A DNA stretch of 64,000 nt from Escherichia phage vB_EcoM_VR26: the sequence record NC_028957.1; one strand, 5' to 3'. Both the position numbers and the translations under genes were made by a program. Shown in pieces: positions 6,321 to 37,893 of the stretch. Under the pieces are notes generated by a model. It saw only the letters and a program-made list of their open reading frames with translations. It searched no databases and was not told where the DNA came from. Within the stretch, counting starts at the first letter, position 1; every line of letters begins with the position of its first letter.

Positions 6321-6353
6321 ATGATACATCATTCAAAGGGGCTTGTACACCCC
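6321..6353 (-). promoter_or_regulatory. Early-promoter/stem-loop cassette (PeSL-like)
   Basis: GC hairpin GGGG-tgtacaag-CCCC with -35-like GTGTAC in loop, about 17 nt to TATCAT. Confidence 0.4.
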
Positions 6354-6356
6354 TTT

Positions 6357-6674
6357 TTAATCTTCAATTAAGTCCTGGTCATACCCCAAGGATATCAGTT
6401 TTGTTTTAAAGGCAGGAATATTGGTCATTTTTTCATCATTGACAAAAATCACCGGGTAACGAATGTTAAGGGTAGGATATCCAGCACGCTTAGCCAGAGA
6501 CACGATTAAAGGCCTGTCATAAGCGATTTCAGAGCCTTGTTTGTTAAGGACTGAATAGAATGTATAGGGAAGGTTTAAGGAGCCCAGAAGGCTCCTGATG
6601 TGCATACAACCAGGGCATCGACCGACTTCTTCGGGAATGCCATAGATTTCAATTTTAGTCGAGTTTTGGCCCAC
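6357..6674 (-). CDS. Glutaredoxin/thioredoxin-fold protein with CPGC redox motif (nrdH-like position)
   Basis: 105 aa; KIEIYGIPEEVGRCPGCMHIRSLL resembles the N-terminal CxxC strand-helix of glutaredoxins; lies between 55 and 49 where T4 carries nrdH. Confidence 0.55.
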   Translation of the reverse strand: MGQNSTKIEIYGIPEEVGRCPGCMHIRSLLGSLNLPYTFYSVLNKQGSEIAYDRPLIVSLAKRAGYPTLNIRYPVIFVNDEKMTNIPAFKTKLISLGYDQDLIED

Positions 6675-6954
6675 AGGAAATTACTCCTTGGTAGTTCCAG
6701 GTTTTAATAACTTCTTCATCACTGGTAGTTTCATACGGAATGTAAACCTGTACAAGGAAACCAGTGTCATCGAAAGAGAAATAAACTGTCGGTTTGATTC
6801 CATGAATCTCGGATTGGGCATAGATATCTTTAAGGTCTTCTTCCTTATCAGCAAAGAATTCCGGGTTCAGGTCACAGTCATGGAAGTACCATTCATCACC
6901 GAACTTGTCCCACGCGGTCCAATTAGTAGCTACATATTCTTCAAAACGTTTCAT
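6655..6954 (-). CDS. hypothetical protein (99 aa)
   Basis: ORF track. Confidence 0.45.
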   Translation of the reverse strand: MKRFEEYVATNWTAWDKFGDEWYFHDCDLNPEFFADKEEDLKDIYAQSEIHGIKPTVYFSFDDTGFLVQVYIPYETTSDEEVIKTWNYQGVISCGPKLD

Positions 6955-7166
6955 TCTTTCACCTTCATCATTTTAGCAATAACACTATGGACAGCCTGGA
7001 TTCGTTTGTCGAACTCAGAGCTTTCGAGGCCAGGATTGGTGCTCAACCAACCAATGATAACAAACAGCAAACCAAACGGGATAGCCAGAATAAGCAGACA
7101 AACGATGAACAACACAAGCGTTATGTTTGCCAGAATATCTGCTGCTGCATTACGAAAATTATTCAT
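6951..7166 (-). CDS. hypothetical small membrane protein (71 aa)
   Basis: ORF track; central hydrophobic stretch LVLFIVCLLILAIPFGLLFVIIGWL. Confidence 0.5.
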   Translation of the reverse strand: MNNFRNAAADILANITLVLFIVCLLILAIPFGLLFVIIGWLSTNPGLESSEFDKRIQAVHSVIAKMMKVKE

Positions 7167-7287
7167 AGAATAGCCCAGGTATTATTAACAACAAATAACC
7201 ATAGAGAAGGATATTCTACACCCATGCGGCGGATAATATCATTCATAGATTCAGCTAAAGCATAAAATGTGTAGCCATAAAAATTAA

Positions 7288-7761
7288 TCATTTGAGCGAT
7301 TTCCTCAGTTGTTTTTTAAATGAAGCTTGTAGTTTAGGCTTCGTATCAGATTCATTATAAGTCATACCGTTCAAAAGCATTTCCTGAATCATTTCTTCTT
7401 TTCCCAGGCGACCAAACTCTTTGGCTTTGTCTGTCACAAAATTGGGGTGAATATTGTTTTCGGTATAATCAGATTTCAGATAGACAAGCAAACTCTCTAA
7501 CCATTCCAGGTAGTCAACATCGCGACCTTTCAGACCCGAGCGGCTGAACTTATGCTTCATTTGTCCTTCTGTTCCATTGCACAGATTGCATAGTAACCCA
7601 CGAACCTTACCGGCTTTTGGCCCGTTCAATTCGTGGTCATGGTCAAGATGGTTGGCCTGAACATCGGAGTCCAAATCACGGTGGCAAATTGGACACTTAC
7701 CAGCTTGTGCATCATAAAGTTTTTGTTTTTCTTCTTTGTATAATTTGCCAGTCAACAACAT
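7288..7761 (-). CDS. 49: Endonuclease VII, Holliday-junction resolvase gp49
   Basis: 157 aa; MLLTGKLYKEEKQK...HLDHDHELNGPKAGKVRGLLCNLCN matches T4 gp49 from memory. Confidence 0.95.
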   Translation of the reverse strand: MLLTGKLYKEEKQKLYDAQAGKCPICHRDLDSDVQANHLDHDHELNGPKAGKVRGLLCNLCNGTEGQMKHKFSRSGLKGRDVDYLEWLESLLVYLKSDYTENNIHPNFVTDKAKEFGRLGKEEMIQEMLLNGMTYNESDTKPKLQASFKKQLRKSLK

Positions 7762-7796
7762 AATAAACCCTTACCATTATTAGATAAGGGTATTTA

Positions 7797-7973
7797 TTAA
7801 ATATTATAGAACGAGCGATGCAACCGTTTAAATTGACGAATCATCTTTTTGGTAGGACGAGTATACAATCCCACACAGGTGGCCATAAACTGGTCAGTAG
7901 GACTTCCCTTGATAAAAAGTTTCCAGACCTTACCACCATTTAACTTTTCAGTATAGACTAATTCAGTTTTCAT
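7797..7973 (-). CDS. hypothetical small basic protein (58 aa), below ORF-track cutoff
   Basis: Own translation: MKTELVYTEKLNGGKVWKLFIKGSPTDQFMATCVGLYTRPTKKMIRQFKRLHRSFYNI; ATG overlaps upstream stop as TAATG. Confidence 0.45.
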   Translation of the reverse strand: MKTELVYTEKLNGGKVWKLFIKGSPTDQFMATCVGLYTRPTKKMIRQFKRLHRSFYNI

Positions 7974-8242
7974 TAAACAATCCTAAAACAAGGGTATTCA
8001 CATTCAACGTTACCATTATCAATTATCATATACTCTGTGATACAAGTCCATGACCCTTCAATTTCTATGGTATCAAAAAGGTATTCATCTGTTTCAACAA
8101 CGTCCCAAACATTACATTTAACATCAGGGTCAAAACGTTGTCTTAACGCCTGGATAACATCGCCATTTTTAAATCCTGTGTCTTGAAGCTCTTTCATAAA
8201 ACCTGATTGAGCAGCATGAATATTAACAATTTCTAAAAACAT
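7973..8242 (-). CDS. hypothetical protein (89 aa)
   Basis: ORF track. Confidence 0.45.
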   Translation of the reverse strand: MFLEIVNIHAAQSGFMKELQDTGFKNGDVIQALRQRFDPDVKCNVWDVVETDEYLFDTIEIEGSWTCITEYMIIDNGNVECEYPCFRIV

Positions 8243-8433
8243 TAAAAGGCCTCATCAGAATAGCGAAGTTGAGCTTCAAGCCAATGAATATAATCTGCTG
8301 CGGCAAAAATTAAAGCCGATTCTTCATCGGGTAACTTACGAGAATCCGACAGCTCGTAAAGAGAATGTTCAATTAAACGACCTTTATGTCGACCTACTTC
8401 AATTTTGGTACTCATACCCAAACTCCATATCAA
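8242..8433 (-). CDS. hypothetical protein (63 aa)
   Basis: ORF track; 1-nt overlap with downstream ORF. Confidence 0.4.
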   Translation of the reverse strand: MIWSLGMSTKIEVGRHKGRLIEHSLYELSDSRKLPDEESALIFAAADYIHWLEAQLRYSDEAF

Positions 8434-8531
8434 TTAAATCATTGTTTGAAGGTTCATTATACTCTATTTCGGAATCGTTGTAAACCGGTTCCTCTGGCTC
8501 GACAGTTTCCCATCGAGCGGTATACCATGGC

Positions 8532-8840
8532 TTAACGGTCACACCAATAACTACTTACTTCAAAATCAGGCTCACCGTCGTCCCAATACCAAGGACCAAC
8601 CGGATGCCAATCGCCATGCTTATCTTCTTCATATTCTTCAGATTCAAGCCCGACATATTGCCATTGGACTTCATAAGCAGTGCCACCAATTACAACCGTG
8701 TTTTCGCCGTACGGGTTAGCAACAGCAAAGTCAATACCTTCTTCTTTCGCCAGGGCTACCATGTATTCATAGAGTTTATATTCCAGGTCGTCTTCTGTAC
8801 CGTCACCTAGAAAAATGGTCTGTTCGTTTAATTCAATCAT
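8532..8840 (-). CDS. hypothetical acidic protein (102 aa)
   Basis: ORF track. Confidence 0.45.
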   Translation of the reverse strand: MIELNEQTIFLGDGTEDDLEYKLYEYMVALAKEEGIDFAVANPYGENTVVIGGTAYEVQWQYVGLESEEYEEDKHGDWHPVGPWYWDDGEPDFEVSSYWCDR

Positions 8841-9025
8841 AATTCCACCATAAATTCAAATAGCTGGTCACGTACACAAGTATCAGTCCAACCCCATTCG
8901 TTGGCTTCTTCTTTTAACCAATCCGGGAGATTTGCCAATACGGTTTCTTTACTAGGCGCAGGAGTATCAAACTCTCTTGCAAACTCTCTTGCGCAGGTTT
9001 CATAAGCTGTATCAAATTCGGTCAT
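8837..9025 (-). CDS. hypothetical protein (62 aa)
   Basis: ORF track; 4-nt overlaps on both sides. Confidence 0.45.
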   Translation of the reverse strand: MTEFDTAYETCAREFAREFDTPAPSKETVLANLPDWLKEEANEWGWTDTCVRDQLFEFMVEL

Positions 9026-9189
9026 TTAAAGTTCCAGAATGAAGCACCAACCAGAAATAAAGGCCAACAAATCATAGACGTCAGCCACCAACAAAAATCA
9101 CCTGCACCAAAATCATCTAATTTAGCTAGGGTCTTAGCATACCCAATACCAATGATAATATACAAAACACCCAACATTAATTCAATCAT
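9022..9189 (-). CDS. hypothetical small membrane protein (55 aa), below ORF-track cutoff
   Basis: Own translation: MIELMLGVLYIIIGIGYAKTLAKLDDFGAGDFCWWLTSMICWPLFLVGASFWNFK; ATGA overlaps with nrdC stop upstream and next ORF start downstream. Confidence 0.5.
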   Translation of the reverse strand: MIELMLGVLYIIIGIGYAKTLAKLDDFGAGDFCWWLTSMICWPLFLVGASFWNFK

Positions 9190-9449
9190 TTGAAATATTC
9201 TCGCAGTTCAGTGAATCCGCCAATATGACTTCCGTCAGGAGCAAACACTTGTGGCATAGTCAAACCAATTTGAGATTCGCGACCAAGTGCAGCCAGGAGT
9301 TGAGCAATCTTCTCATCATCAAACACACCTTTTTCTGGCATGACGTTGATGAATTCGTAAGGTTGTTTTTTAACATCCAAAAAACGTTTTACATTATCGC
9401 AGAATACACAGCGATGGATAGATGAATCATAACCATATACTTTAAACAT
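9186..9449 (-). CDS. nrdC: Glutaredoxin/thioredoxin NrdC
   Basis: 87 aa; MFKVYGYDSSIHRCVFCDNVKRFL...IGLTMPQVFAPDGSHIGGF matches T4 NrdC from memory. Confidence 0.9.
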   Translation of the reverse strand: MFKVYGYDSSIHRCVFCDNVKRFLDVKKQPYEFINVMPEKGVFDDEKIAQLLAALGRESQIGLTMPQVFAPDGSHIGGFTELREYFK

Positions 9450-9450
9450 A

Positions 9451-9708
9451 TTATTCCTTAATTCCTAATACTTGTTTGAAGGTCTCAGTATAATCGGAGT
9501 ATTGACCGGTTTGTTCTTTATGTTTGTCCATAATATCATAAACTTCTGAACGCATATTATTATACGAACGGGTTAAAGCGGATTTCAATACTGAATAACT
9601 ATCCGGAAATTTACCGTGTTCTTTATAATAGGCCAGAGTTAATTCACGGACCGCCTTATCAGCAGTCTCAAGATATTCTTTACGCTTTGCCATTTTCTTC
9701 TCGCTCAA
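9451..9708 (-). CDS. hypothetical protein (85 aa)
   Basis: ORF track. Confidence 0.45.
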
Positions 9709-9901
9709 ATTTGTGTTTACAATGACGGCATTTATATTGAAGCGGAGAGCTACGCCAATAAGTCAATTGGACCTGTTCAGTTCCGCATTCAGGGCAGTTC
9801 GGAACATTCTTAGAAGCTTGTTCACGTCGTTCGACAATTTTAATAATTTGGTTCCAATCAGGAATAGTTTCTGCAATGTCTTCTCTTAAACGTTGTTTCA
9901 T
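9680..9901 (-). CDS. hypothetical protein with two CxxC pairs (zinc-ribbon-like, 73 aa)
   Basis: NCPECG ... CRHCKH pairs about 21 residues apart. Confidence 0.45.
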
Positions 9902-10875
9902 TTCAACAGCTCCAGAGCCTGTTCCAGTTTATCCAGACGATTGGTTGATTCTTCCCAGAGCTTTTTAGCTTTAGTGTAGGCCTCAGTTAAGATTTTATTA
10001 TGTTCAAGAGCTTCCGAGTAAGCCTTTTCTAAGGCGATAACTTCAGGGCGTACATTATCAGGAACATTATTAATGGCTTCAGCCCATTTAACTTCTTGCG
10101 GTGCATTCATAATTTCCTCACTTTTCTTTTTATAGATTTCTGCATCAGTTGGTTGCTTTGCACATTTAACTTCGCGCAGTGTCACCACAATTTTATAACC
10201 TTTCCAACCATGAGAACTGGTGATAGGGTCAACTTTAATTTTTTCAACAGTGTGCATATAATTAAGTGCACACTGCAGCTGATGAGTGAGCGTGCACGCA
10301 ACATCAAGATACTTTTTGATATTTTCAGGCGTAGCCTCTGGAGTATAGAACTCACGCTTAACTGTAATAATTACCTGATTTTCACCAGAATCTTTAACCT
10401 TTACCATGTGCTCAGCCAGATGGTAGATAGTGCGAAAATCCCCACCCATCAATTTTGTTGCTGATTTTATGATAGACATTTTGTTATTTCTGAATTCACG
10501 TGACCAACTGTTTGCGAATTCAGAAACAGTATAGCCTTGTTTATCAAGATAGTATTTTTCAACATCACCAAACCAATGATATCCAATTGTACCTTTACCA
10601 CGTCTGGATTCAACACCAAACTTATTAAGAAGGTCTTTATTAACCAGGTATGCCAGGACTCTGGAACCTTTAAAAGTTTTCTTGATATCATCATTACCTG
10701 CGCGATTCGCAATAGCCGCGATGTCTTTCTCAAAGTGACAGGATGCAATAATCGTCGAGTCAATCTGATTTAACCAGGAATTGATAATTGAAAGGATAGC
10801 CGATTCACCTATTAATGGTTTTACTTTTGTATCGATAGTGGTGTTAAAGGCCTGAATATATTCGTTACGTGTCAT
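9898..10875 (-). CDS. hypothetical protein (325 aa) with C-terminal coiled coil
   Basis: ORF track; C-terminus ...[21 protein letters not shown] is heptad-like; no family recognised. Confidence 0.55.
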   Translation of the reverse strand: MTRNEYIQAFNTTIDTKVKPLIGESAILSIINSWLNQIDSTIIASCHFEKDIAAIANRAGNDDIKKTFKGSRVLAYLVNKDLLNKFGVESRRGKGTIGYHWFGDVEKYYLDKQGYTVSEFANSWSREFRNNKMSIIKSATKLMGGDFRTIYHLAEHMVKVKDSGENQVIITVKREFYTPEATPENIKKYLDVACTLTHQLQCALNYMHTVEKIKVDPITSSHGWKGYKIVVTLREVKCAKQPTDAEIYKKKSEEIMNAPQEVKWAEAINNVPDNVRPEVIALEKAYSEALEHNKILTEAYTKAKKLWEESTNRLDKLEQALELLK

Positions 10876-10932
10876 AGTGTTCTCCTCATAAAGTAGGAAT
10901 CATTATATTCCCTCCATCCTTGGAAGTAAACA

Positions 10933-11868
10933 TTATTTTAATGCTTTGATTGCAGCTTGCAATTTATTGCGTTGCTTTTCCATGTTCTTGATGCGATTCA
11001 GAACATCCTGGATACCCTTCTTCTCATCTTCAATCAGACCATTTAAGCGGTTGACTGATTCCTTGATAGCATCCGCATGATAGCTCTCAATAGGCTTCAT
11101 CGCAGGGTTAAAGATTTCAATAGAGCTGGCTGGCTTCATTGACGGGTTAAAGCCGGCTGGCTGGATTTTCCACTGATACGTATTTTTAACGTCCAGGGGT
11201 GAAATAGATGGTGATGTATATTGACCTGCAAATGCTGGGCCATATGATGCAGTAGGGATACGTTCCATTTCTGGTTCCTTTTTCTCTTGATAAGGTGCAT
11301 AAGACAAAAGATATTCCTTTGTCAGTTTAATATCGATAGTTACGGTTTTAAGGAATTTTTCCGTTTGGTGGATATAATTTGTATCTTCATCAAACGTGTA
11401 CGATTCAACAGCATGGCGCATATAAAACAGCGCAATACCCATAACCTCTTTAAAGTTATGACAAAGAGCAACATCGCCCTTGGTGGTTGGTTTGAACTTA
11501 ATCTGTACACCATCATTCTTGATATTGATAATCAAGTTGTCAGAGTTAAAATTATAGTTCTTGATGTTAACCGGAGCTTTGCGAATACGAAATCCGCCGG
11601 CCAGAATTTCCTTGATACTCTTACGAACCGTGGCACCAAACAAAAACGCTGGGCGGCGGCAGTAATCATTCAGAGAGTTAATTCTTACAATACGTTGGCC
11701 ATACCCCTGGGTAGCAGAACCTGATTTGATTTTGCCAAAGTTAACCAAAGAATTCATTGCGATAAGACGAGTCACACGACCGTCATGTGGTTCATAACTA
11801 CTAGCATATTCAGCGCGAGTTTTAATTTTCATATCATAGTCCAAATAATTTTTCATAAAATTTAGCAA
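10933..11868 (-). CDS. hypothetical protein (311 aa) with C-terminal coiled coil
   Basis: ORF track; C-terminus ...NRIKNMEKQRNKLQAAIKALK; start may be an internal Met near 11832. Confidence 0.55.
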   Translation of the reverse strand: MLNFMKNYLDYDMKIKTRAEYASSYEPHDGRVTRLIAMNSLVNFGKIKSGSATQGYGQRIVRINSLNDYCRRPAFLFGATVRKSIKEILAGGFRIRKAPVNIKNYNFNSDNLIINIKNDGVQIKFKPTTKGDVALCHNFKEVMGIALFYMRHAVESYTFDEDTNYIHQTEKFLKTVTIDIKLTKEYLLSYAPYQEKKEPEMERIPTASYGPAFAGQYTSPSISPLDVKNTYQWKIQPAGFNPSMKPASSIEIFNPAMKPIESYHADAIKESVNRLNGLIEDEKKGIQDVLNRIKNMEKQRNKLQAAIKALK

Positions 11869-12049
11869 TAGGCCAAAACACCATCATAATTGCCCAAACA
11901 AACCAAAGCAGAGGCCATACTAGTGTAATGAATACTGCATCATAACTTGACTCAATTTCGACTGGATTCCAATCACCAGATTTATGAATGAGTATGGTCG
12001 TTATGAATCCTAATACAAAGTAAAGGAAAATAAAACCTACTATTTCCAT
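11834..12049 (-). CDS. hypothetical membrane protein (71 aa)
   Basis: Two hydrophobic segments (IVGFIFLYFVLGFITTILI; LVWPLLWFVWAIMMVFWPI). Confidence 0.5.
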   Translation of the reverse strand: MEIVGFIFLYFVLGFITTILIHKSGDWNPVEIESSYDAVFITLVWPLLWFVWAIMMVFWPIAKFYEKLFGL

Positions 12050-12133
12050 ATTAACCTACAATATTTGAGAATATAAGCCACAAAATACCTGTGGCAACGA
12101 ATACATAACCGAGAACGGCGAGCCATTCCATCA

Positions 12134-12982
12134 TTAATCCTTAAGCAACTCAATAACGTTCATCAGTTTCTGACGTTCAGCTTTCGCTGCATTGTTCAGT
12201 CCTGACAGACGGAAAATTTCATCATCTTGCTGCTGGATGGTGATGTTAAGCTCTTCAATCTGTTTAGTGAAAAGCTCAATTTGCTCTGAATATTTTTCAT
12301 TGCTTCGCACTGGAACAGGTTCCATTTTAGGAGCTTGCTCTGAAGGACTATCAACTACAACTCGGTCTTTAATTTGACATAATTTAATACGCTGGACGCC
12401 TCCAGTTTTAACATCATAAAATACAAGAATTCCATGGGTCTCTAGTTCAGACAAAGCCAAACGGAGGTGGAATTTCCAGTTTTCGTATTGACATCCGCTA
12501 AAAGAAGAAATACTGTATTCGCCTTCATTTTGACCTTTAATAACATTAAATAGTTTGTAATCTAAAGAATTATTGGTTTTAAAGGTCATTTGTTTATCTT
12601 GACCGCTTGCTAAACGAGCACCTAATGCCAATAAACGGCGTTGGTTAGTATGAAGGTCTTTGACCACTTCATCAAATGTCATGGTGCTAATCGCACGACC
12701 ATAAAGGTCATAACCTTTATTATAATTTTTAAGTAAAATTTTGGCATTAGCACGAGACAACATACCTGAACGTTGAAGAGATTTCATGACTCGGTCTTCT
12801 AATGTAAGCAAGCCCGTTGTTTTATTAAAGATTTTAGTGAATTCAGCAGAATTAGTACAAACATTGAACTTATTCCACATCATATATAGAACATTTAAAA
12901 CAACATCTTTAGTGCTTGGAATACTGTTAAATTTAACAACTTTTTTAACTTCAGAACGAATTTCATTAATTGCTTGTGACAT
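12134..12982 (-). CDS. hypothetical protein (282 aa) with C-terminal coiled coil
   Basis: ORF track; C-terminus ...QIEELNITIQQQDDEIFRLSGLNNAAKAERQKLMNVIELLKD. Confidence 0.55.
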   Translation of the reverse strand: MSQAINEIRSEVKKVVKFNSIPSTKDVVLNVLYMMWNKFNVCTNSAEFTKIFNKTTGLLTLEDRVMKSLQRSGMLSRANAKILLKNYNKGYDLYGRAISTMTFDEVVKDLHTNQRRLLALGARLASGQDKQMTFKTNNSLDYKLFNVIKGQNEGEYSISSFSGCQYENWKFHLRLALSELETHGILVFYDVKTGGVQRIKLCQIKDRVVVDSPSEQAPKMEPVPVRSNEKYSEQIELFTKQIEELNITIQQQDDEIFRLSGLNNAAKAERQKLMNVIELLKD

Positions 12983-13045
12983 ATTATTTTCCTCAATAGA
13001 TTAATCAAAGGTCAGAACCATTATACCATCCTTGGGATAAAGCGT

Positions 13046-13570
13046 TTATGCGTGAACCGTCTTTAAACGCTCTTCAAATTTCAGAAGGAGTACCTGGCGC
13101 TCTGCTCTTTGTTTGGTATAGGTTTCAATACGCTCTGAAGTGAGATTGTATTGTTCATTAACTGATTCCCGCATGAATTCAGGAATCTCTTTACATGCTT
13201 TGATTTCATTGAACTTATCAAGCACTGCTTGTTGTTCAGCAATCAGACCATCATAATATTGGATATCTGATTTGATGTTCTGTACATCAGATTCAGTTGG
13301 CATATTTTTCTTTGCTCTTGCCGCTTGATACTCAGCATTAGTCTCTCTTGACCAGAACAAAGAGCGGTTTTTGTTAGTGTTTTTATACACATCAACAATA
13401 CCAACTGAATCAACAGTCACAATCCAGTTCCAGGCGTTTTTATAAGTTTGACCACCTGATACTGTAATCTCACCTGCACAAGCAACATCATTAAAGAACT
13501 TGCTTTGTGCTTCTGATTTAAAATTACCATTATTGTAATTAATCAGATTAAAGATTGATTTGACTTCCAT
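13046..13570 (-). CDS. hypothetical protein (174 aa)
   Basis: ORF track; preceded by SD GGGAG and promoter cassette 13608-13637. Confidence 0.55.
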   Translation of the reverse strand: MEVKSIFNLINYNNGNFKSEAQSKFFNDVACAGEITVSGGQTYKNAWNWIVTVDSVGIVDVYKNTNKNRSLFWSRETNAEYQAARAKKNMPTESDVQNIKSDIQYYDGLIAEQQAVLDKFNEIKACKEIPEFMRESVNEQYNLTSERIETYTKQRAERQVLLLKFEERLKTVHA

Positions 13571-13607
13571 TTTATTCTCCCGTTTGTTTGGTAACTCAGT
13601 ATAGGAA

Positions 13608-13637
13608 CATTATGTCACGCTCCCATACTGGTGTACA
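13608..13637 (-). promoter_or_regulatory. T4-type early promoter
   Basis: Minus strand GTGTAC -18 nt- CATAAT, inverted repeat cagtatggga/tcctatactg flanking the -10, conserved leader ctgagttaccaaa. Confidence 0.5.
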
Positions 13638-13640
13638 CAT

Positions 13641-13943
13641 TTAATTAAAAGTTCTTTCAGTATTTTCACCACTGAACCAGGCGCTCTTAACAGCTTGCTG
13701 TGCGCGATGAATCTGTTCAGCCATATAAACACCAAGGGCCTCTGCCTTTCTTGTCCTGTGGGCTTCTGCGGCGACCATTTGCAGCTTATCCATCATGATA
13801 AGAGCTTTACATTTCTCCTTCAGAGCATAACGTTTCTTCTCTTCTGGAGGTTTGACCATTCCTCTTAACTTGTGCATTTTCAACTTAAAATGGTCAGCAG
13901 ATTTAAGACATGCATCAATCATGTCAATTTCATACTTTTTCAT
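13641..13943 (-). CDS. hypothetical protein (100 aa)
   Basis: ORF track. Confidence 0.45.
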   Translation of the reverse strand: MKKYEIDMIDACLKSADHFKLKMHKLRGMVKPPEEKKRYALKEKCKALIMMDKLQMVAAEAHRTRKAEALGVYMAEQIHRAQQAVKSAWFSGENTERTFN

Positions 13944-13949
13944 AATTCC

Positions 13950-14156
13950 TCACTTGCGACGACGTTTTGGTAATGGTTTAGGGAAGAACATTGCTTTACC
14001 TGCAGGGGTCAAAGTCACACGCAAAGCATTACCAATACCAAGGGATGATTTAACCAGACCTTTGGCTTTTAACTCACCAAATGCTTGGCGTTGTTCAGGG
14101 TCACGTGTGTTAACCATCAGACCTTTTTCACCAGCAGCTTTGATTAATTCTAACAT
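13950..14156 (-). CDS. hypothetical basic protein (68 aa)
   Basis: ORF track; preceded by promoter cassette 14197-14226. Confidence 0.45.
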   Translation of the reverse strand: MLELIKAAGEKGLMVNTRDPEQRQAFGELKAKGLVKSSLGIGNALRVTLTPAGKAMFFPKPLPKRRRK

Positions 14157-14196
14157 TTTATTCTCCAGTTTTTATTTGGTAACTCAGTATGGGAAC

Positions 14197-14226
14197 ATTA
14201 TACGTCTATCCCATACTGATGTACAT
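14197..14226 (-). promoter_or_regulatory. T4-type early promoter
   Basis: ATGTAC -18- TATAAT with flanking inverted repeat and conserved leader. Confidence 0.5.
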
Positions 14227-14403
14227 CTATTTTATATAATTTTTAATATCAATTCTACCCTGGTAGTGCTTGGCGGTTTCCTTCATCTTTTCTACGTCAA
14301 TACCAACAATAACCTCACATGATTGACTTCCATGATGGTGTTTAAAATGTTCAATCGCTTCCTCTCGCGTTTGTTTGGATACGCGCGGTCTCATATGATT
14401 CAT
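14227..14403 (-). CDS. hypothetical His-rich small protein (58 aa), below ORF-track cutoff
   Basis: Own translation MNHMRPRVSKQTREEAIEHFKHHHGSQSCEVIVGIDVEKMKETAKHYQGRIDIKNYIK; strong SD TAAGGAG 6 nt upstream. Confidence 0.45.
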   Translation of the reverse strand: MNHMRPRVSKQTREEAIEHFKHHHGSQSCEVIVGIDVEKMKETAKHYQGRIDIKNYIK

Positions 14404-14464
14404 AAGGGCTCCTTAGTAAAAATTCATTATGCATCAACAGAGACAAGTTTGTATACCTTTAAAA

Positions 14465-14491
14465 TAAAAAAAAAAGGACCCCGAAGGGTCC
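14465..14491 (-). terminator. Rho-independent terminator
   Basis: Minus strand GGACCC-ttcg-GGGTCC followed by 10 T. Confidence 0.65.
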
Positions 14492-14734
14492 TTAGATTGC
14501 ACTCCAAAAATTATGGAATCTTATAGTATTGATAGCCCAGTTAACAAAACGCCTGGTTTGTTTGGAAGTTGGTTTACACGTGTACTTAATGTTGATTCGT
14601 CTGCCAGTTTCCCGACAGACTGCTTCGAGATACCAGCGCCGACCTTTATTGGGTCTTCCATATGATAAGAAGACCTTCATTTCTTCATTAACGATAATAG
14701 GAATTGTGGTTGTCAAGATATACCTCTTCAACAA
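14492..14734 (-). CDS. hypothetical basic protein (80 aa; may start at internal Met 14680)
   Basis: ORF track; followed by hairpin plus T-run terminator. Confidence 0.4.
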   Translation of the reverse strand: MLKRYILTTTIPIIVNEEMKVFLSYGRPNKGRRWYLEAVCRETGRRINIKYTCKPTSKQTRRFVNWAINTIRFHNFWSAI

Positions 14735-15698
14735 ACTTGTCCCAGAACTTCATGTCTACCTTATCAGGCATACCGTTCTTGGCCGCCCAGACGGCATTGG
14801 TTTCGACTTCATCGACGATTGCTTCAAGTTCAGCTTGTACATCTTTAAAAGCGTGTAGGCCTTGTTTGATTTCAAGGATAAATGGAGCCGTACGTAAAGG
14901 ATATTGAAGGTCACCGGTCATATAAATTTCCTTCAGCTGATATCCAGCTCGATAAGCATGACTCAATGCTTTCCAGTCAATACCTTCATTCGCTTCGGCC
15001 TTACGAGCGCGTTCACCATATTCGGCATCAAGTTTATTCAGAGATTGCTTAAGCTCGATTAATGACAAAGTAGTTTGGTATTTGCGACCGAGAACAGTAT
15101 AAAACGTTTGAGGACCGGTTTTCTCATGGTTATGGAACACCCATTCGCAAAATTCGTTCTCTGGAAGACGATGCTTAATATCTTCAACTTTAGTACGACG
15201 TTGTTTAGTCGTACCATCTTCTTGGTAGTCAACCCACTGTTCAGGAATCTGGTTAACAATTGCCAGTACACCACGTAAAGCAGCCAGTCTAGAACCTTTA
15301 ACACCATATTTTGAAGCTTGCTTACGGACATACCCCAAATATGCTTTCATGTTGGTCGTATAGAACCGTGAACGGTTGTCTTGGATAAATTTCCATACAT
15401 CTGGTAAATCGGATTTGACTACCAGGTTAGCCGGAGTGTGAATCATGTCCAGAGCAACAGTTTCACCTTCAGCCGCCAGTTTAAAGAAATATTTCAGGCT
15501 ATAAAGCTCGTGGTCAACATCGTCTTTAGTGTTTTTGGATGCCGTGTTATTCGTGTTCAAGTTTGTATGATTCATAGCCGTACCTAACAGAATGTCACGT
15601 GGGTGTGGAACAAAGATTTCCTTAAAATCGACATCAGATTCAGGAGTACTTGTTCCATAAAGATGTGAGCCAAAATAGCCCTTCATAACTGTTCTCAT
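14688..15698 (-). CDS. Predicted polymerase-beta-fold nucleotidyltransferase (336 aa)
   Basis: N-terminal GSHLYGTSTPESDVD fits the hG[GS]x9-13DxD motif; T4 has an uncharacterised nucleotidyltransferase-like ORF in the nrdC region. Confidence 0.6.
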   Translation of the reverse strand: MRTVMKGYFGSHLYGTSTPESDVDFKEIFVPHPRDILLGTAMNHTNLNTNNTASKNTKDDVDHELYSLKYFFKLAAEGETVALDMIHTPANLVVKSDLPDVWKFIQDNRSRFYTTNMKAYLGYVRKQASKYGVKGSRLAALRGVLAIVNQIPEQWVDYQEDGTTKQRRTKVEDIKHRLPENEFCEWVFHNHEKTGPQTFYTVLGRKYQTTLSLIELKQSLNKLDAEYGERARKAEANEGIDWKALSHAYRAGYQLKEIYMTGDLQYPLRTAPFILEIKQGLHAFKDVQAELEAIVDEVETNAVWAAKNGMPDKVDMKFWDKFVEEVYLDNHNSYYR

Positions 15699-16462
15699 TA
15701 TTCGCCTCTTTCATAGTCTTCAATAAATTGCATAATTAAACGTTGATAGTTAGATTTACGGTATCCTAATTTACTAATATGAGTACCAAAAGCTCCACGC
15801 TTAGGCCTATTTAATTTAACCCATAAAGAATAAAGCAAATCATAATCTTGCCAATGTTTTCCTATTCTTTGCTTTGCTTTAGAAGCGTCGGACTGCCTCT
15901 TTTTAGTCTCTGGATTATTTAGAGATTTCTTAACAGCATTTGAATGTCTTTCTCTAACACCCGGGCGTTTAAATGCTTCTTTAACAGATTTAGAAATTTT
16001 CTCTTTAACTTCAGGACGGTTTTGAGCTTCTATTTGAGCCGCCGACATTTTATCTTTTATTTCGGATAGACTCATAGTTATAGAACGTTTATTTCTATAC
16101 TCTTTGGTCTTCCATAGTTCTTTCATCGTATTTGAATGAATTTCTGAAAATTTTTCTCTAACTAATTGGTAGCCCCTAGAAGTTAGTTTAAGATTTCTTC
16201 CTAGAGAATCCTCGCCGAAGTTATAAAATGACCACCAGGCATAAATTAATCCAGAAGAATCAGAATGAATTCTGGCTAGAAGCCAGTGTGCTATAAAATG
16301 TTCTCTGGCCGTCAGCAGAACTAAATTATTAGGTTCATCACTCCCACCAATACATGATGGGAGTATATGATGGGACTCTGTATAAAAATTTAATTTGGAT
16401 TTGTCTAATCCTCTGAATTTACCTCTTTGGATTAGACTATCATAAAGCTTTGTATAATTCAT
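15698..16462 (-). CDS. HNH homing endonuclease (Mob-like)
   Basis: ESHHILPSCIGGSDEPNNLVLLTAREHFIAHW HNH core; start placed at internal MNYTKLYDSL (track extends to 16501). Confidence 0.75.
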   Translation of the reverse strand: MNYTKLYDSLIQRGKFRGLDKSKLNFYTESHHILPSCIGGSDEPNNLVLLTAREHFIAHWLLARIHSDSSGLIYAWWSFYNFGEDSLGRNLKLTSRGYQLVREKFSEIHSNTMKELWKTKEYRNKRSITMSLSEIKDKMSAAQIEAQNRPEVKEKISKSVKEAFKRPGVRERHSNAVKKSLNNPETKKRQSDASKAKQRIGKHWQDYDLLYSLWVKLNRPKRGAFGTHISKLGYRKSNYQRLIMQFIEDYERGE

Positions 16463-16464
16463 TA

Positions 16465-16920
16465 TTATTTTGTTTTGTCCTCGAAGTGAATTACCGGACA
16501 CATCTTAGATTTACGAGCTTTAATGTATTGGACGACAAGGTTTTCTTTAATTTCCTTTCCTTCACGCTCAGCTTTAATTCGTTTCCATTCTTTTTCTTCT
16601 TTATGTAAATCGTACCAGGTCCATAAATTCATTAGACCATACATTAAACCAAATGCTACCGCCAGAATAAGAGCCAGTGTAGATAGCCCCAAAATAAAAC
16701 CTAACCCCAAACCAACAGGAGTACTTAATACAAAGAACTGCTCCAATACACCAGCACCTGCAACAGTTAAGGCGAAAATAGTACTACCTGCAACCACAGA
16801 AAAAACAAAACAGGCCCATACAATTTTCCAGAAGTAAGCACACAATGAGTGTGGTCGAGAATGACGGTCATAAAAACGGTCGTGTAATTTAGCGTGCCAA
16901 GCGTTTGTATTGATAATCAT
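16465..16920 (-). CDS. hypothetical membrane protein (151 aa)
   Basis: Multiple hydrophobic segments. Confidence 0.5.
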   Translation of the reverse strand: MIINTNAWHAKLHDRFYDRHSRPHSLCAYFWKIVWACFVFSVVAGSTIFALTVAGAGVLEQFFVLSTPVGLGLGFILGLSTLALILAVAFGLMYGLMNLWTWYDLHKEEKEWKRIKAEREGKEIKENLVVQYIKARKSKMCPVIHFEDKTK

Positions 16921-16929
16921 AATAATTCC

Positions 16930-18714: not shown

Positions 18715-18744
18715 ATAGTACACCCTTTTGATGAGGATGTAAAC
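18715..18744 (-). promoter_or_regulatory. T4-type early promoter
   Basis: GTTTAC -18- TACTAT, then SD GAGGAG and ATG 18686. Confidence 0.5.
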
Positions 18745-22631: not shown

Positions 22632-22661
22632 ATCATAACTCATTTCAACCTGCTTGTACAC
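22632..22661 (-). promoter_or_regulatory. T4-type early promoter upstream of regB
   Basis: GTGTAC -18- TATGAT. Confidence 0.45.
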
Positions 22662-24421: not shown

Positions 24422-24724
24422 TTAAAAAGAACCAGAGCCTTTAATTGTGTTCTGGCGACCTTTATTTTCTACTTCAGAATGGTCGATTTCGTATGCTTGT
24501 GCTACGCCAAAGGCCTTTTTAACTTTAGCTAAAGAACCTTTAGATGTAACAATATTAAAAGTATTGCCTTTGGTAAAATCAACCAAATCCACTTGCACCC
24601 CTTGTTTACCGAGGCTTGCTACAATAGCATCAACATATTGTTGGTCTAAATTGCCTTGAACCCCAATTTGAAATGCTTTAGGAACTTTAGCAGATTCAGT
24701 AATAAATTCTTGATATGTTTTCAT
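24422..24724 (-). CDS. Internal-protein-like capsid-targeted protein (MKTYQEFITES leader)
   Basis: N-terminus MKTYQEFITE matches the capsid-targeting leader shared by T4 IPI/IPII/IPIII as recalled. Confidence 0.7.
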   Translation of the reverse strand: MKTYQEFITESAKVPKAFQIGVQGNLDQQYVDAIVASLGKQGVQVDLVDFTKGNTFNIVTSKGSLAKVKKAFGVAQAYEIDHSEVENKGRQNTIKGSGSF

Positions 24725-24737
24725 ATTGTTTCTTTAA

Positions 24738-25543: not shown

Positions 25544-25573
25544 ATTATAACCCTATCGTTTGGAGATGTAAAC
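25544..25573 (-). promoter_or_regulatory. T4-type early promoter upstream of denV
   Basis: GTTTAC -18- TATAAT with inverted repeat atagggt/accctat around the -10; -35 overlaps e stop codon. Confidence 0.5.
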
Positions 25574-28033: not shown

Positions 28034-28060
28034 AATATTTTCCTCATTGATTGTGGGACC

Positions 28061-28090
28061 ATTATGTCATAGCCCCATTTGGTTGTACAC
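28061..28090 (-). promoter_or_regulatory. T4-type early promoter
   Basis: GTGTAC -18- CATAAT. Confidence 0.45.
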
Positions 28091-28092
28091 AC

Positions 28093-36053: not shown

Positions 36054-36434
36054 TTAACCTTCATCAACAATAGTATGGGTGTTGGCATTAACAATCTGCC
36101 ACCAGTCAAAACGGTTAGAACCATATTGAGGCTTATTCTCGTTTTCTTTAATGATATCGCGCAGTTCGTCTTCAGTCGCAGCTTTTGCGATTAGGTCTGC
36201 ATAACCACCCCGGGGATAATAGCTATCGCCAGCAAAGAGTAAAAAGTTTGTTTTGATATTCTTGAATTCTTCAAGAGTAATAACCGTTCCAGATGGTTGA
36301 ACAATATCTACGTAACTATACCCCAATTGCTGGGCTTTATCTACCGCTTCAAGCAGGGTGTCATGCGCCCACCCAATTTGACACTCTGGTTTGTCAGATG
36401 GATTGGCCTGATAATCCGCATACACTTTATACAT
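36054..36434 (-). CDS. hypothetical protein (start at internal MYKVYADY)
   Basis: SD AAGGTGAG 5 nt before ATG 36434; track ORF extends to 36482. Confidence 0.5.
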   Translation of the reverse strand: MYKVYADYQANPSDKPECQIGWAHDTLLEAVDKAQQLGYSYVDIVQPSGTVITLEEFKNIKTNFLLFAGDSYYPRGGYADLIAKAATEDELRDIIKENENKPQYGSNRFDWWQIVNANTHTIVDEG

Positions 36435-36435
36435 T

Positions 36436-36621
36436 TTACTCACCTTTAGATATTTTATCCATAACGAAAGAGATTGAACCAATTAAGAATGCAACTACTA
36501 AAGAGATTGTATTCTCAGAAGTTGAAAGCATATTCAACATAAAGCCAGCAAACATGCTAAAACCAAAAGCAGTAACAGCAACAAGGGCAGTAACATTTCT
36601 AATTAATTCGCAACGTTTCAT
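36436..36621 (-). CDS. hypothetical small membrane protein (61 aa)
   Basis: Two hydrophobic segments. Confidence 0.45.
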   Translation of the reverse strand: MKRCELIRNVTALVAVTAFGFSMFAGFMLNMLSTSENTISLVVAFLIGSISFVMDKISKGE

Positions 36622-36649
36622 TTTATTCTCCTCAGTAGTTGATGGGATA

Positions 36650-36678
36650 ATTGTACACTATCCCATTCAAAAGTACAC
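36650..36678 (-). promoter_or_regulatory. T4-type early promoter
   Basis: GTGTAC -17- TACAAT with inverted repeat tgggata/tatccca. Confidence 0.45.
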
Positions 36679-36912
36679 TTATTTTTTACGGAAAATTGAT
36701 TTATACTTGTTAGCCCATTTCTCGATAACTTCTGCCGGACCCTGGATAACAAAATAGTCACCAAACTCTTCACCGCCGAGCTGACCGTAATTATCTAAGG
36801 CGTCGCGGAGAGTTCCATAAGGCATTTCGCCCATTTTATCTTTCTTGCCAGTGTAAATGAATTGCACTTTAACATCAGCAGTTTCATTAATAAATTCTTG
36901 ATAAGTTTTCAT
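36679..36912 (-). CDS. Internal-protein-like capsid-targeted protein (MKTYQEFINET leader)
   Basis: IP-type N-terminal leader. Confidence 0.7.
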   Translation of the reverse strand: MKTYQEFINETADVKVQFIYTGKKDKMGEMPYGTLRDALDNYGQLGGEEFGDYFVIQGPAEVIEKWANKYKSIFRKK

Positions 36913-36937
36913 GCTGTCTCCAGTAGTTGATGGGATA

Positions 36938-36967
36938 ATTATACTGCAGTTATTCCATCATGTATAC
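36938..36967 (-). promoter_or_regulatory. T4-type early promoter upstream of IP-like gene
   Basis: GTATAC -18- TATAAT. Confidence 0.45.
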
Positions 36968-37210
36968 TTATTTTAAGTCTTCTAGGCGTTTTTTCATCTT
37001 GGTGCCATTCTTAGCAATTTCGCCTGCATCAGAACAAAGAGCAAGGAGAGCTTTAACTTTACCCTGGTCGCCTTTAAAAGATGATGCATCTACAGAATCA
37101 GCAAGTTCTTTGATGCGAGCAAACAGGCGCTCTGCTTCAGCAAGGGCTTGACCAAGTTTAACTTCCATACCATGGGAAGATTCTGTCATAAATGTTTGAT
37201 AAGTTTTCAT
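36968..37210 (-). CDS. Internal-protein-like capsid-targeted protein (MKTYQTFMTES leader)
   Basis: IP-type N-terminal leader. Confidence 0.7.
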   Translation of the reverse strand: MKTYQTFMTESSHGMEVKLGQALAEAERLFARIKELADSVDASSFKGDQGKVKALLALCSDAGEIAKNGTKMKKRLEDLK

Positions 37211-37218
37211 TTGAAATC

Positions 37219-37491
37219 CTATTTTAGATAAATTGCATATTTTTTATACCCAGCTGTCTCATGGCGGAGACCCTTGTCATTGGCAAAACGCTCAATGTTA
37301 TTAATTTGGTTCTGGTCAAGTTCAGAGATGTCAAACGCGAAAAAGTTGCGTTTGTTACCAATTGTTATATGGTCAGTTAAGTCAATGCTGTACAGGTGAT
37401 TGATATTGTCAATCATAGCTTTGACTGCTTTACTAATTTTTACTTCTTCATTCAGTTGGGACTCGTTGAAAAGTTCATTAAAAGTTTTCAT
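37219..37491 (-). CDS. Internal-protein-like protein (variant leader MKTFNELFNES)
   Basis: Leader variant of MKTYQEF. Confidence 0.6.
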   Translation of the reverse strand: MKTFNELFNESQLNEEVKISKAVKAMIDNINHLYSIDLTDHITIGNKRNFFAFDISELDQNQINNIERFANDKGLRHETAGYKKYAIYLK

Positions 37492-37499
37492 AAGAAACC

Positions 37500-37832
37500 T
37501 TATTTATACAGTTTAGCTAGTTCTTTACGTCCGCGAGCAGACATAATGAATTGTTCATCACCAATTTTGAAATAAGCCATACCGCCGTCAACAGCGATGC
37601 CAATTTCTTTAGTACCTTCTTTGCCTTTCCACTTGCCACCAGATTTCAGGACAGCTTCAACTGCAGCTTTGGAATATTTGGACGTTTGAAAACGTTCATT
37701 ACCAATCTGAAAGAAAACACCATCTGCGTTTTTGGATAAACCAAATTTCAGAGAGCCTTCACTATCATCAATTGATTTGGTCTCATTGATGGCGGATTCG
37801 GCTAAAAACTCATTATAAGTCTTGATGTTCAT
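37500..37832 (-). CDS. Internal-protein-like protein (start at MNIKTYNEFLAES)
   Basis: Leader variant; track ORF extends to 37865. Confidence 0.6.
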   Translation of the reverse strand: MNIKTYNEFLAESAINETKSIDDSEGSLKFGLSKNADGVFFQIGNERFQTSKYSKAAVEAVLKSGGKWKGKEGTKEIGIAVDGGMAYFKIGDEQFIMSARGRKELAKLYK

Positions 37833-37863
37833 TTTAACTCCGTTTGTTCGTTGGTGTAGGAAC

Positions 37864-37892
37864 ATAATACTGCACCTACACTCGTTTGTACA

Positions 37893-37893
<1 letters not shown>
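37864..37893 (-). promoter_or_regulatory. T4-type early promoter upstream of IP-like gene
   Basis: GTGTAC -18- TATTAT with inverted repeat gtgtagg/cctacac. Confidence 0.45.

Follow-up and report, generated by a model that had tools for sequence, protein, structure and literature searches.

Early promoter and stem-loop cassettes in the minus-strand early region of Escherichia phage vB_EcoM_VR26

What separates the many small early genes of a T4-type phage from one another, and what do the repeated elements found at their junctions do? The question is raised by a 64,000-nucleotide (nt) stretch of the genome of Escherichia phage vB_EcoM_VR26 (NC_028957.1), called the window below, in which a reading of the sequence alone had pointed to a family of promoter and stem-loop cassettes upstream of minus-strand genes between positions 6321 and 37893. 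We identified 21 such cassettes, all on the minus strand. They have a common anatomy, occur far more often than chance allows, are conserved in related phages, carry stems that covary among orthologs, are enriched in a motif for RegB cleavage and include two recombinants. We consider it probable, at roughly 85%, that they are the immediate-early promoters of this T4-type phage, built as composites of the kind known as promoter early stem-loop (PeSL) elements, in which a hairpin would act on read-through RNA, RegB would limit expression, and shared sequence would occasionally serve as a substrate for recombination.

The window comes from a Gaprivervirus genome (VR7-like, T4-type; Tevenvirinae) with 86-98% identity to VR7, TH22 and other members of the genus. 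Sites were located with a two-block position weight matrix (PWM) trained on 18 curated examples, one block covering the upstream (UP) region and -35 element and the other the -10 element with 6 nt downstream. At a cut-off of 12 bits the whole window yields 22 minus-strand hits representing 21 distinct sites and no plus-strand hits, whereas Markov simulations give an expectation of 0.67. Leave-one-out scores range from 15 to 35 bits, and a complete cassette at 18744 that lay outside the training set was recovered de novo, with a terminator upstream and the leader CCATCAACTAC, a Shine-Dalgarno (SD) sequence and ATG downstream. All sites fall between 5229 and 37893, and none occurs among the plus-strand structural and late genes beyond 42 kb. 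Nineteen lie inside the interval 6321-37893, whose ends coincide with the -10 element of its first site and the -35 element of its last. The original prediction of at least 14 sites was, if anything, low.

The motif as first written, G[TA]GTAC followed after 17-18 nt by TATAAT, CATAAT or TATCAT, is too narrow. It matches only six times, all on the minus strand, and inspection of the minus-strand intergenic gaps by eye brought out many more related sites whose hexamers deviate slightly. Its excess over chance is nevertheless clear, as GTGTAC-N17-18-YATAAT is present four times against 0.04 expected. When one mismatch is allowed in the regular expression there are 29 minus-strand and 17 plus-strand matches, for a Markov null of 10.9 (standard deviation 3.7). 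That the cassettes are accidental, or AT-rich sequence of a generic promoter-like kind that forms no family of its own, is scarcely credible. Matches to a generic sigma70 consensus do stand at background, but the PWM excess, the complete strand and region specificity, the significant partner-swap, leader-motif and hairpin controls given below, and the conservation of sites at orthologous positions in nine relatives and in T4 all speak for a distinct family. A chance origin is already refuted by these PWM, partner-swap, leader, hairpin and orthology controls.

The consensus consists of an A/T-rich UP region, GT(G/A/T)TAC, 18 nt, (T/C)ATAAT and (G/T)ATCCCA(T). A degenerate -35 hexamer, G(T/A)GTAC, had been foreseen, but the variable base is the third rather than the second: GTGTAC is used at 10 sites, GTATAC at 4 and GTTTAC at 4, while GAGTAC is absent. 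The predicted spacer is borne out, with 18 nt at 18 of the 21 sites (17 nt in the standard TTGACA register, in which GTGTAC-N18-TATAAT reads TGTACA-N17-TATAAT), but five sites have -10 variants other than those predicted. From -22 to -2 relative to the -35 element the UP region is 72% AT (41% A), for a background of 61% AT, and a G occupies position -13 at 14 of 21 sites. GGG appears in 11 of 21 spacers, and the CCC counterpart of this GGG...CCC core appears at 17 of 21 sites. The last codons and stop of the upstream gene fall in the A-rich UP region. At 15 of 20 sites, no more than 12 nt in either direction separate the end of the stop codon from the base with which the -35 element begins.

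This consensus agrees with that of T4 early promoters, which have GTTTAC at -36 to -31, G at -33 in some genera and a run of C residues at -3 to -1 (PMC1524935; PMC2988021), and T4 has this promoter type at its own regB, nrdC.4 and pin junctions. Scanning T4 from 38 to 78 kb in the same way revealed GTTTAC-N18-TATAAT at the orthologous junctions of regB, nrdC.4 (L010:12974 in our numbering of T4) and, inside 49.1, upstream of pin (L010:9453). The RefSeq record of T4 carries no promoter features, so these sites are scan calls. A typical early promoter is known for T4 regB (PMC3014915).

Beyond the promoter, an SD and ATG lie 16-44 nt after the predicted start site at every site except the intragenic one at 5644. 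Conserved leaders had been predicted, and two families of them indeed recur on the minus strand: family A, CTGAGTTACCAAA, in four exact copies, and family B, CCATCAACTAC, in four exact copies and one with a single mismatch. Both counts exceed those of all 100 shuffles. Family A is restricted to Gaprivervirus, with 6-10 copies per genome that are near-identical over ~70 nt. The only family-A cassette from outside the genus among the matches listed is at 61330-61392 of Morganella phage MP1 (KX078569.1), where the depositor's annotation is 'promoter'. Family B, to which the cassette at 36678 belongs, is present in 710 phage records, mostly beside internal-protein genes.

The strong SD expected at the end of the leader is also present, and it is usually a candidate RegB-type cleavage site carrying GGAG. 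Judged by VR7 curated gene starts, GGAG is found in the SD of 11 of 17 cassette-led genes versus 10 of 94 other genes (odds ratio (OR) 15.4, p=5e-6), with GAGG or GGGA taking its place in about a third of cassettes. Strong intergenic sites of RegB/S1 cleavage in T4 early mRNAs have the consensus GG*AGRAYARAA (PMC3014915). The window contains four exact GGAGRAYARAA matches, all on the minus strand and directly before a cassette ATG (13570, 14156, 33502 and 36621), and six more matches with one mismatch lie within cassettes. The regB gene itself is encoded at 22604-22146 and, as in T4, is cassette-led with a GGAG SD.

An inverted repeat with one arm in the spacer and the other just after the -10 element had been ascribed to the family as a whole. 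We find it at 11 of the 21 sites, with arms specific to each site, and see no such stem at the rest. Where it occurs it is not fortuitous: matched arms pair better than partner-swapped arms (mean best-stem score 6.64 versus 5.19), and none of 2000 permutations reaches the observed value. There are at least eight different -10 stems, for example TCAGTATGGGA/TCCCATACTGA, GATAGGGT/ACCCTATC, GGGAACAT/ATGTTCCC, GTGTAGG/CCTACAC and GGGGTCAT/ATGACCCC, and the folding energies of their sense-strand RNA lie between -14 and -24 kcal/mol, the lowest z being -5.3. The -10 stems covary among orthologs in the nine relatives. A compensatory series is seen for the cassette at 28090, where ACCAT/ATGGT (TH41), ACTAT/ATGGT (TH55) and ACTAT/ATAGT (TH57) represent successive pairing states.

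A stable stem-loop is present in ~16 of 21 cassettes, with 11 over the -10 element, two over the -35 element (6350 and 33571) and three upstream with U-tails (14456, 18744 and 34615). When the most stable hairpin of each cassette is taken, the median is -12.4 kcal/mol, compared with -8.35 kcal/mol in 150 random same-strand windows (p=1.3e-4), and hairpins at -11 kcal/mol or lower are found in 14 of 21 cassettes versus 32 of 150 control windows. Several promoters had been said to sit beside a GC-rich hairpin that terminates the upstream gene, and such neighboring hairpins are indeed seen, three upstream with U-tails and two over the -35 element. Only the three upstream hairpins have the form of an intrinsic terminator, a GC-rich hairpin followed directly by a U-tract, and two of them have CUUCGG-type loops.

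Where the hairpin lies is informative. A -10 stem is present at 11 of 15 sites at which the upstream stop codon abuts the -35 element and at none of five at which the stop is more than 30 nt upstream (Fisher p=0.008), where the hairpin adjoins the stop instead. This dependence on the upstream stop would point to a function in RNA that reads in from the preceding gene, the hairpin being forced into the promoter where genes are tightly packed; as support for an RNA role this rule is weak.

The arrangement that we propose is as follows. Each cassette would run from a UP region, usually overlapping the upstream stop, through a -35 element GT(G/A/T)TAC, 18 nt, a -10 element (T/C)ATAAT, a C-rich start and a 16-44 nt leader to the SD and ATG, with the SD most often a putative RegB/S1-type cleavage site, GGAG(RAYARAA). 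Judging from sequence and T4 orthology, transcription from these promoters would begin at infection and depend on the sigma70 RNA polymerase of the host. The hairpin, set just after the upstream stop wherever that stop falls, would most likely act on RNA reading through from the preceding cassette, either as an attenuator or as a barrier at the 3' end; after cleavage of the leader by RegB or host RNases, it would determine where the upstream message ends. Together, the hairpin and RegB cleavage of the SD could turn every small gene into an early unit of its own that is expressed only transiently. Sites have 50-90 nt of cassette sequence in common, and for this reason the cassettes occasionally also undergo homologous recombination by which a promoter and its ORF (open reading frame) are inserted, deleted or exchanged, as two events show.

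Several results weigh against this interpretation. A generic TTGACA/TATAAT scan shows no enrichment (71 versus 61 and 67 versus 60), and the promoter signal is therefore specifically T4-type, with only a T4-type matrix being informative; an extended -10 element (TGn, with TG at -15/-14) is present at 4 of 21 sites only; and we infer the start sites, strength and timing of the promoters entirely from sequence. Three or four cassettes have no convincing hairpin. None of the 11 -10 stems is followed by a U-tract (tails are AGTTACC, CAACTAC and similar), and they are therefore not canonical intrinsic terminators. The stop-adjacency rule fails in T4, where long -10 stems at ipII and mobD.2a have distant upstream stops. 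A test for sense-RNA folding based on the asymmetry between G.T and A.C mismatches was null (5 versus 2 events; 10 versus 8 sites, p=0.47), and since the two mismatches are about equally tolerated there is room for a DNA-level role of the -10 repeats. Finally, breakpoints are not in excess at cassettes, as detailed below. Extra leader copies sought in IMG/VR for the RNA/DNA test amounted to 4 loci for family A and 9 loci for family B, with no power gained, and a metagenome scan with a 16-mer returned at least 120 loci, nearly all of them chance matches, with about one new promoter context.

The -10 repeats could thus be DNA elements, either operators bound by a phage protein that is dimeric or recognizes structure, or cruciforms, that control the promoter, for instance by shutting it off. 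T4 sites also have inverted repeats around the -10 element, including perfect repeats of 14-15 base pairs (bp) at ipII and mobD.2a (3 of 2000 permutations), and the feature is therefore general to T-evens; we found no mention of such repeats in the reviews of T4 transcription that we consulted. Their centering on the -10 element, the common GGG...CCC core, the mismatch tolerance and the persistence of long perfect T4 repeats even where the upstream stop is distant are all in keeping with a DNA-level function, and the mechanism by which early promoters are shut off is not completely understood (PMC3014915). Yet the arms differ between sites while covarying within them, giving at least eight stems, unlike a sequence-specific operator; hairpin position is flexible and follows the upstream stop codon; half of the cassettes have the same promoter consensus and no -10 repeat; and a published PeSL stem-loop acted as a terminator in a lacZ reporter (PMC2839356). 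We consequently regard a DNA-level role as rather improbable. The more specific proposal that the repeats are the cis-determinant of rapid early-promoter shut-off, through hairpin or cruciform extrusion or a structure-specific factor, in place of a view that invokes an RNA attenuator only, seems to us very improbable.

Hairpins might instead provide transcript-specific translation, as in T4 e, soc and 49, with the SD hidden in read-through RNA and free in promoter-proximal RNA that lacks the 5' arm. The predicted unpaired probability of SD and ATG is indeed 0.67 in promoter-initiated RNA versus 0.48 in read-through RNA (p=1e-5), but a control with shuffled upstream sequence nearly removes the effect (0.48 versus 0.53, p=0.08). 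Also, the -10 stems pair the spacer with the first transcribed bases and not with the SD, which is 15-30 nt further downstream. General sequestration of the SD in read-through RNA is therefore unsupported under the shuffled-upstream control, and as an account of the whole family this explanation is improbable. Individual sites fare better: the cassettes at 22661 (regB) and 29944 fall below 98% of shuffled-upstream controls and that at 10931 below 93%, and in the read-through fold of the denV cassette at 25573 the spacer CUCC (25566-25562) pairs with the SD GGAG (25528-25524) around the inner -10 stem. In this model the denV cassette is among the few for which transcript-specific translation looks plausible. 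For the family as a whole we retain the reading in which the hairpin would act on read-through RNA as an attenuator or 3'-end barrier.

The last question is how far the cassettes shape gene content, since they had been proposed as possible recombination modules. BLAST chains of positions 1-41 kb against nine Gaprivervirus genomes reveal 55 distinct indel or replacement events of at least 80 nt, in a region whose 5-38 kb portion holds every cassette. Sixteen of these events touch a cassette, whereas cassettes make up 5.6% of the sequence.

Two crossovers can be resolved inside cassettes. In VR7, TH22, TH44 and TH57, two tandem cassettes flank an ORF of ~100 codons (VR7ORF146c), where the window has a single chimera, P34097 (34024-34117; TTTTAC/TATAAT, spacer 17). 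The upstream copy supplied its UP region, -35 element, spacer, -10 element and stem (10 bp over the -10 element, 34088-34057), and the downstream copy its SD and gene. The crossover falls within the shared 22-nt family-A leader CCATACTGAGTTACCAAATAAA, at about 34060-34039 (~34.05 kb). The second event is the insertion of a 58-codon ORF (14403-14227) between the cassettes P14456 and P14226 (indel 14240-14466). The latter cassette (14154-14246; ATGTAC/TATAAT; PWM 31.3 bits), which is chimeric or swapped, has an 11-bp perfect stem over the -10 element (14219-14184), a family-A leader and GGAGAATAAAA-ATG. Its spacer and stem are those of the VR7 nrdC.8 promoter (0.98 identity), as opposed to 0.73-0.77 identity to its positional orthologs in all nine relatives. 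The cassette P14456 (14401-14476; GTATAC/CATAAT, spacer 19; PWM 18.9 bits), which would drive the 58-codon ORF, absent from TH22, TH44 and TH55, is preceded by a U-tailed terminator with a CUUCGG loop right after the upstream stop (14493-14474; -13.3 kcal/mol; tail TTTTTTTTAT) that is common to VR7 and TH22.

These crossovers, the share of events that touch cassettes, the near-identity of family A at 6-10 places per genome and the recurrence of breakpoints 7-14 nt upstream of a -35 element (14240, 28100, 36692 at P36678 and 36974 at P36967) would all be expected if the cassettes were primarily recombination modules, with PeSL-PeSL exchange and mini-circles dominating differences in gene content. 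Further breakpoints cluster at 29883-29986 around P29944 and just upstream of P34615 (34638 and 34662). However, the proper null for breakpoint enrichment is other gene junctions, and against these there is no excess: 9 of 18 cassette junctions are breakpoints versus 36 of 78 others (OR about 1.2, p about 0.8), and whichever of two indel-size cut-offs and three paddings is used, OR stays at 1.05-1.5 and p at 0.44-1.0. Events that both start and end in a cassette number just 4 of 55, and 16 of 21 cassettes retain an identity of at least 90% to the orthologous position in the nine relatives. Most other indels occur at gene boundaries that lack a promoter, with junction overlaps of 4-12 nt, and the two largest variable insertions are endonuclease genes (15698-16501 and 28093-28743). 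The proposal of recombination modules thus stands for the two resolved crossovers and not as a statement about where breakpoints prefer to fall, and we think it unlikely that recombination is the primary role of the cassettes. In Gaprivervirus, breakpoints arise mainly in other ways, with cassette recombination a by-product.

The two endonuclease genes differ in their relation to the cassettes. The minus-strand gene at 15698-16501 encodes a 267-amino-acid homing endonuclease (phrog_655, E=3e-55) and lies in a 770-nt segment that none of the nine relatives has. It occupies the T4 mobD position between nrdC.11 and mobD.1, with junction overlaps of 3-4 nt and no promoter cassette. The HNH endonuclease-like gene at 28093-28743, also on the minus strand (phrog_374, E=2e-59), is present in the window and VR7 and precisely absent from eight relatives, and one end of its indel is 9 nt upstream of the -35 element of P28090.

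Internal-protein genes have been exchanged at shared 5' ends coding for MKTYQEF along with family-B cassettes. Five small minus-strand genes start with MKTYQEF or MKTFNE (24724, 25052, 36912, 37210 and 37491), a start that we take to be the capsid-targeting sequence of T4 internal proteins. Indels of relatives at 24680-24737 are bounded by repeated MKTYQEF-type coding sequence and not by a promoter. In VR7 (L001), at 30760-30650 on the minus strand, leader, SD and ATG are all missing where a family-B promoter (GTTTAC...TATAAT) directly joins the truncated 5' end of an internal-protein gene (GTTAACTTATCAAGAATTT), an arrangement that looks like a recombination scar.

The remaining cassettes can be followed along the minus strand in order of position. 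Two are peripheral and lie outside the interval 6321-37893. P5229 (5149-5249; PWM 16.4 bits) has a weak -35 element, CAGTAA, an extended -10 element, TGgTATAAT, and a perfect 8-bp stem over the -10 element (GGGGTCAT/ATGACCCC, 5215-5194; -13.8 kcal/mol). P5644 (5551-5664; GTATAC/TATAAT; PWM 17.5 bits) is intragenic and uncertain, with no clear hairpin and a homologous site in T4 (L010:3262). P6350 (6287-6370; GTGTAC/TATCAT; PWM 36.0 bits), upstream of the 55.6 homolog, has the leader CCATCAACTAC, ATG at 6289 and a hairpin enclosing the -35 element (AAAGGGG-tgtacaag-CCCCTTT, 6356-6335; -11.3 kcal/mol), and it is 96-100% identical at the orthologous site in the nine relatives. P8485 (8413-8505; GTTTAC/TATAAT; PWM 25.1 bits) lies inside the 49.1 homolog, upstream of a pin-like ORF, and has no -10 stem. 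P10931 (10873-10951; GTTTAC/TATAAT; PWM 28.2 bits), upstream of nrdC.4, has the SD GAGGAG and a short stem over the -10 element (GGGAAT/ATTCCT, 10912-10895). The nrdC.8 cassette P13638 (13568-13658; GTGTAC/CATAAT; PWM 29.5 bits) carries the family-A leader CTGAGTTACCAAA, GGAGAATAAAA-ATG and a 14-bp stem over the -10 element (13630-13597; fold -23.8 kcal/mol, z -4.3).

Between the mobD.7 and mobD.5 homologs, P18744 (18684-18764; GTTTAC/TACTAT; PWM 22.8 bits) combines the family-B leader and SD GAGGAG with a 12-bp, U-tailed terminator upstream that has a UUCG loop (18784-18757; -16.1 kcal/mol), and it shares 92-100% identity with orthologous sites. No convincing hairpin is seen at P22661 (22602-22681; GTGTAC/TATGAT; SD AAGGAG), upstream of regB, or at P25112 (25050-25132; GTGTAC/TATAAT; PWM 27.8 bits), upstream of an internal-protein gene with the MKTYQEF start. 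The denV cassette P25573 (25515-25593; GTTTAC/TATAAT; PWM 23.9 bits) has 10 bp over the -10 element (25557-25535; fold -19.2 kcal/mol, z -5.3), and its -35 element contains the breakpoint of a 287-nt insertion present in TH44 and TH55. P28090 (28031-28110; GTGTAC/CATAAT; PWM 28.6 bits) has a 9-bp stem over the -10 element (28077-28054), and P29944 (29884-29964; GTGTAC/TATCAT; PWM 28.5 bits) has the leader TCGTCAACTAA and a degenerate remnant of a -35 hairpin.

Tandem runs with one ORF per cassette are typified by the cassettes at 34615, 34097, 33571 and 33192. P33192 (33118-33212; GTGTAC/TAGTAT; PWM 23.0 bits) has a stem of 8-9 bp over the -10 element (GGGAACAT/ATGTTCCC, 33178-33157; fold z -3.3). 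P33571 (33500-33591; GTATAC/CATAAT; PWM 31.3 bits) has a family-A leader, GGAGAATAAAA-ATG and a hairpin enclosing the -35 element (AGGGGG-tatacaa-gCCCCCT, 33576-33557; -12.4 kcal/mol). P34615 (34533-34635; GTGTAC/CATAAT; PWM 37.6 bits) has the leader CCATACTGAGTTACACAC and SD TGGAG, and a U-tailed terminator follows the upstream stop (34658-34681, hairpin 34675-34660; -14.6 kcal/mol; tail TTTTTATACC). Upstream of the tRNA.4 homolog, P36678 (36619-36698; GTGTAC/TACAAT, spacer 17; PWM 32.6 bits) joins a family-B leader and GGAGAATAAAA-ATG to a stem of 10 bp over the -10 element (36666-36642; fold z -2.6). P36967 (36910-36987; GTATAC/TATAAT; PWM 31.7 bits), upstream of an internal-protein gene (MKTYQEF), also has a family-B leader, and its -10 stem TGATGGAATAA/TTATCCCATCA (36960-36928) has one A.C mismatch here and is perfect in relatives. 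Downstream of 57B, P37893 (37830-37913; GTGTAC/TATTAT; SD CGGAG; PWM 29.4 bits) has the 7-bp stem GTGTAGG/CCTACAC over the -10 element (37881-37854), for which TH44 has an alternative 9-bp register, GTAGGTGCA/TGCACCTAC.

Some of these elements may have second functions. When 6335-6356, 33557-33576 and 5193-5216 are read on the plus strand, a hairpin is followed by a T-run complementary to the UP element, and all three were scored as plus-strand terminators. The -35 hairpins, and the -10 hairpin at 5215, may therefore also stop antisense transcription. MotA-box-like sequences are present just after the -35 element in the spacer of P33192 (GCTTTA, 33186-33181) and in that of P33571 (33554-33548), which may be dual early/middle promoters. 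Elsewhere on the minus strand, GCTTTA or TGCTTTA stands ~12 nt upstream of good -10 boxes at 13045-12983, 4295-4248 and 2712-2656, which suggests T4-type middle promoters at these three places.

The genomic setting fits an early region. A megablast search with positions 12-22 kb matched 745 T4-type phage records, of which the best were Escherichia viruses TH22 and TH15 (96%) and VR25 and VR7 (96-97%), all Gaprivervirus. Going by the VR7 annotation, the minus-strand block that extends from 1 to ~41 kb is the counterpart of T4 46/47, a-gt, 55, nrdH, 49, nrdC.x, mobD.x and rI, then tk, vs, regB, ip, denV, e, tRNAs, ip, 57B/A and 1-4, and plus-strand baseplate genes come after it. From this predicted gene content the block is the classical prereplicative hyperplastic region. 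Genes for two tRNAs, Arg(tct) and Met(cat), lie at 35359-35514 on the minus strand, where the VR7 annotation has tRNA-Met alone, and 1.4 kb around them (34.64-36.06 kb) is swapped for different sequence in most relatives. At 7167-7301, six relatives have ~2.4 kb extra that is missing from the window and VR7 and that carries nrdD and nrdG (anaerobic ribonucleotide reductase, UPEC01 annotation). An Rfam scan gave no family matching the cassettes and returned the two tRNAs only. Pfam gave no matches for four cassette-led or variable ORFs, two of which are endonucleases according to PHROGs.

Our findings provide a quantified early-transcription architecture for the VR7 group, comprising 21 cassettes, their consensus, the placement of their hairpins and a RegB-type ribosome site, that should be useful for annotating Gaprivervirus genomes and for picking strong portable phage promoters. 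The joining of promoter, hairpin and RegB site in one unit of ~80 nt suggests that each small early gene is a self-limiting expression module. The published notion that PeSLs drive genome plasticity is tempered, as in this genus they are substrates in a few cases and not preferred breakpoints.

Compared with known systems, the cassettes resemble the T4 'uber' early promoters, with UP, -35, TGn and -10 elements, in their -35 type, TATAAT, A/T-rich UP region and C-run before the start (PMC2988021; PMC1524935). They differ from T4 in favoring G or A over T at -33, in having TGn at 4 of 21 sites only and in their repeated leaders, which are not in T4. The GGAG of early SDs and the four cassettes with the exact strong consensus are like the RegB/S1 sites of T4 (PMC3014915), and here are known from sequence alone. 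As small accessory ORFs with their own promoter and a hairpin or terminator, the cassette-led genes are also like the 'morons' of lambdoid phages (PMC1524935), but their base composition is the same as that of the genome, and their control elements are a native repeated phage family rather than foreign DNA.

The closest counterparts are the PeSLs, which consist of a strong early promoter of sigma70 type, preceded by AT-rich sequence and accompanied by a stem-loop, and end in an SD and start codon, and which are concentrated in hyperplastic early regions (PMC2839356; PMC4122927). Their stem-loops take five positions, including between or over the -35 or -10 elements or upstream, with G-T pairs allowed and often with polyG...polyC, and PeSLs have been described for phi1/RB49, T4/PST and KVP40/nt-1, with PeSL-like sequences in JS98 (PMC2839356; PMC4122927). 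Terminator activity was demonstrated for one PeSL stem-loop in a lacZ reporter (PMC2839356). For phi1/RB49 PeSLs, terminator activity and mini-circles have been shown, whereas the VR7-group cassettes are known from sequence alone, and the association of PeSLs with breakpoints is not significant here relative to other gene junctions. The -35 elements GTGTAC, GTATAC and GTTTAC are unlike the near-perfect TTGACA of RB49 PeSLs, and the leader families are genus-specific. In the literature searched we found no description of PeSLs for the VR7 group. What is new is modest: VR7-group cassettes of a known kind, with an integrated RegB-type site and a negative test of breakpoint enrichment as additions. 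The likeness that had been proposed nonetheless holds for every sequence-level feature, namely the promoter, AT-rich upstream region, stem-loop, SD and ATG at the 3' end and hyperplastic location. As with PeSLs, the stem-loop varies in position, including over the -10 element, has a core of G- and C-runs, admits G-T pairs and is dense in the hyperplastic early region. There is often one cassette per small ORF in tandem runs, and deletion or insertion between tandem copies leaves a chimera, such as that at 34097, whose topology is the one drawn for RB49 ORF192 in the PeSL literature.

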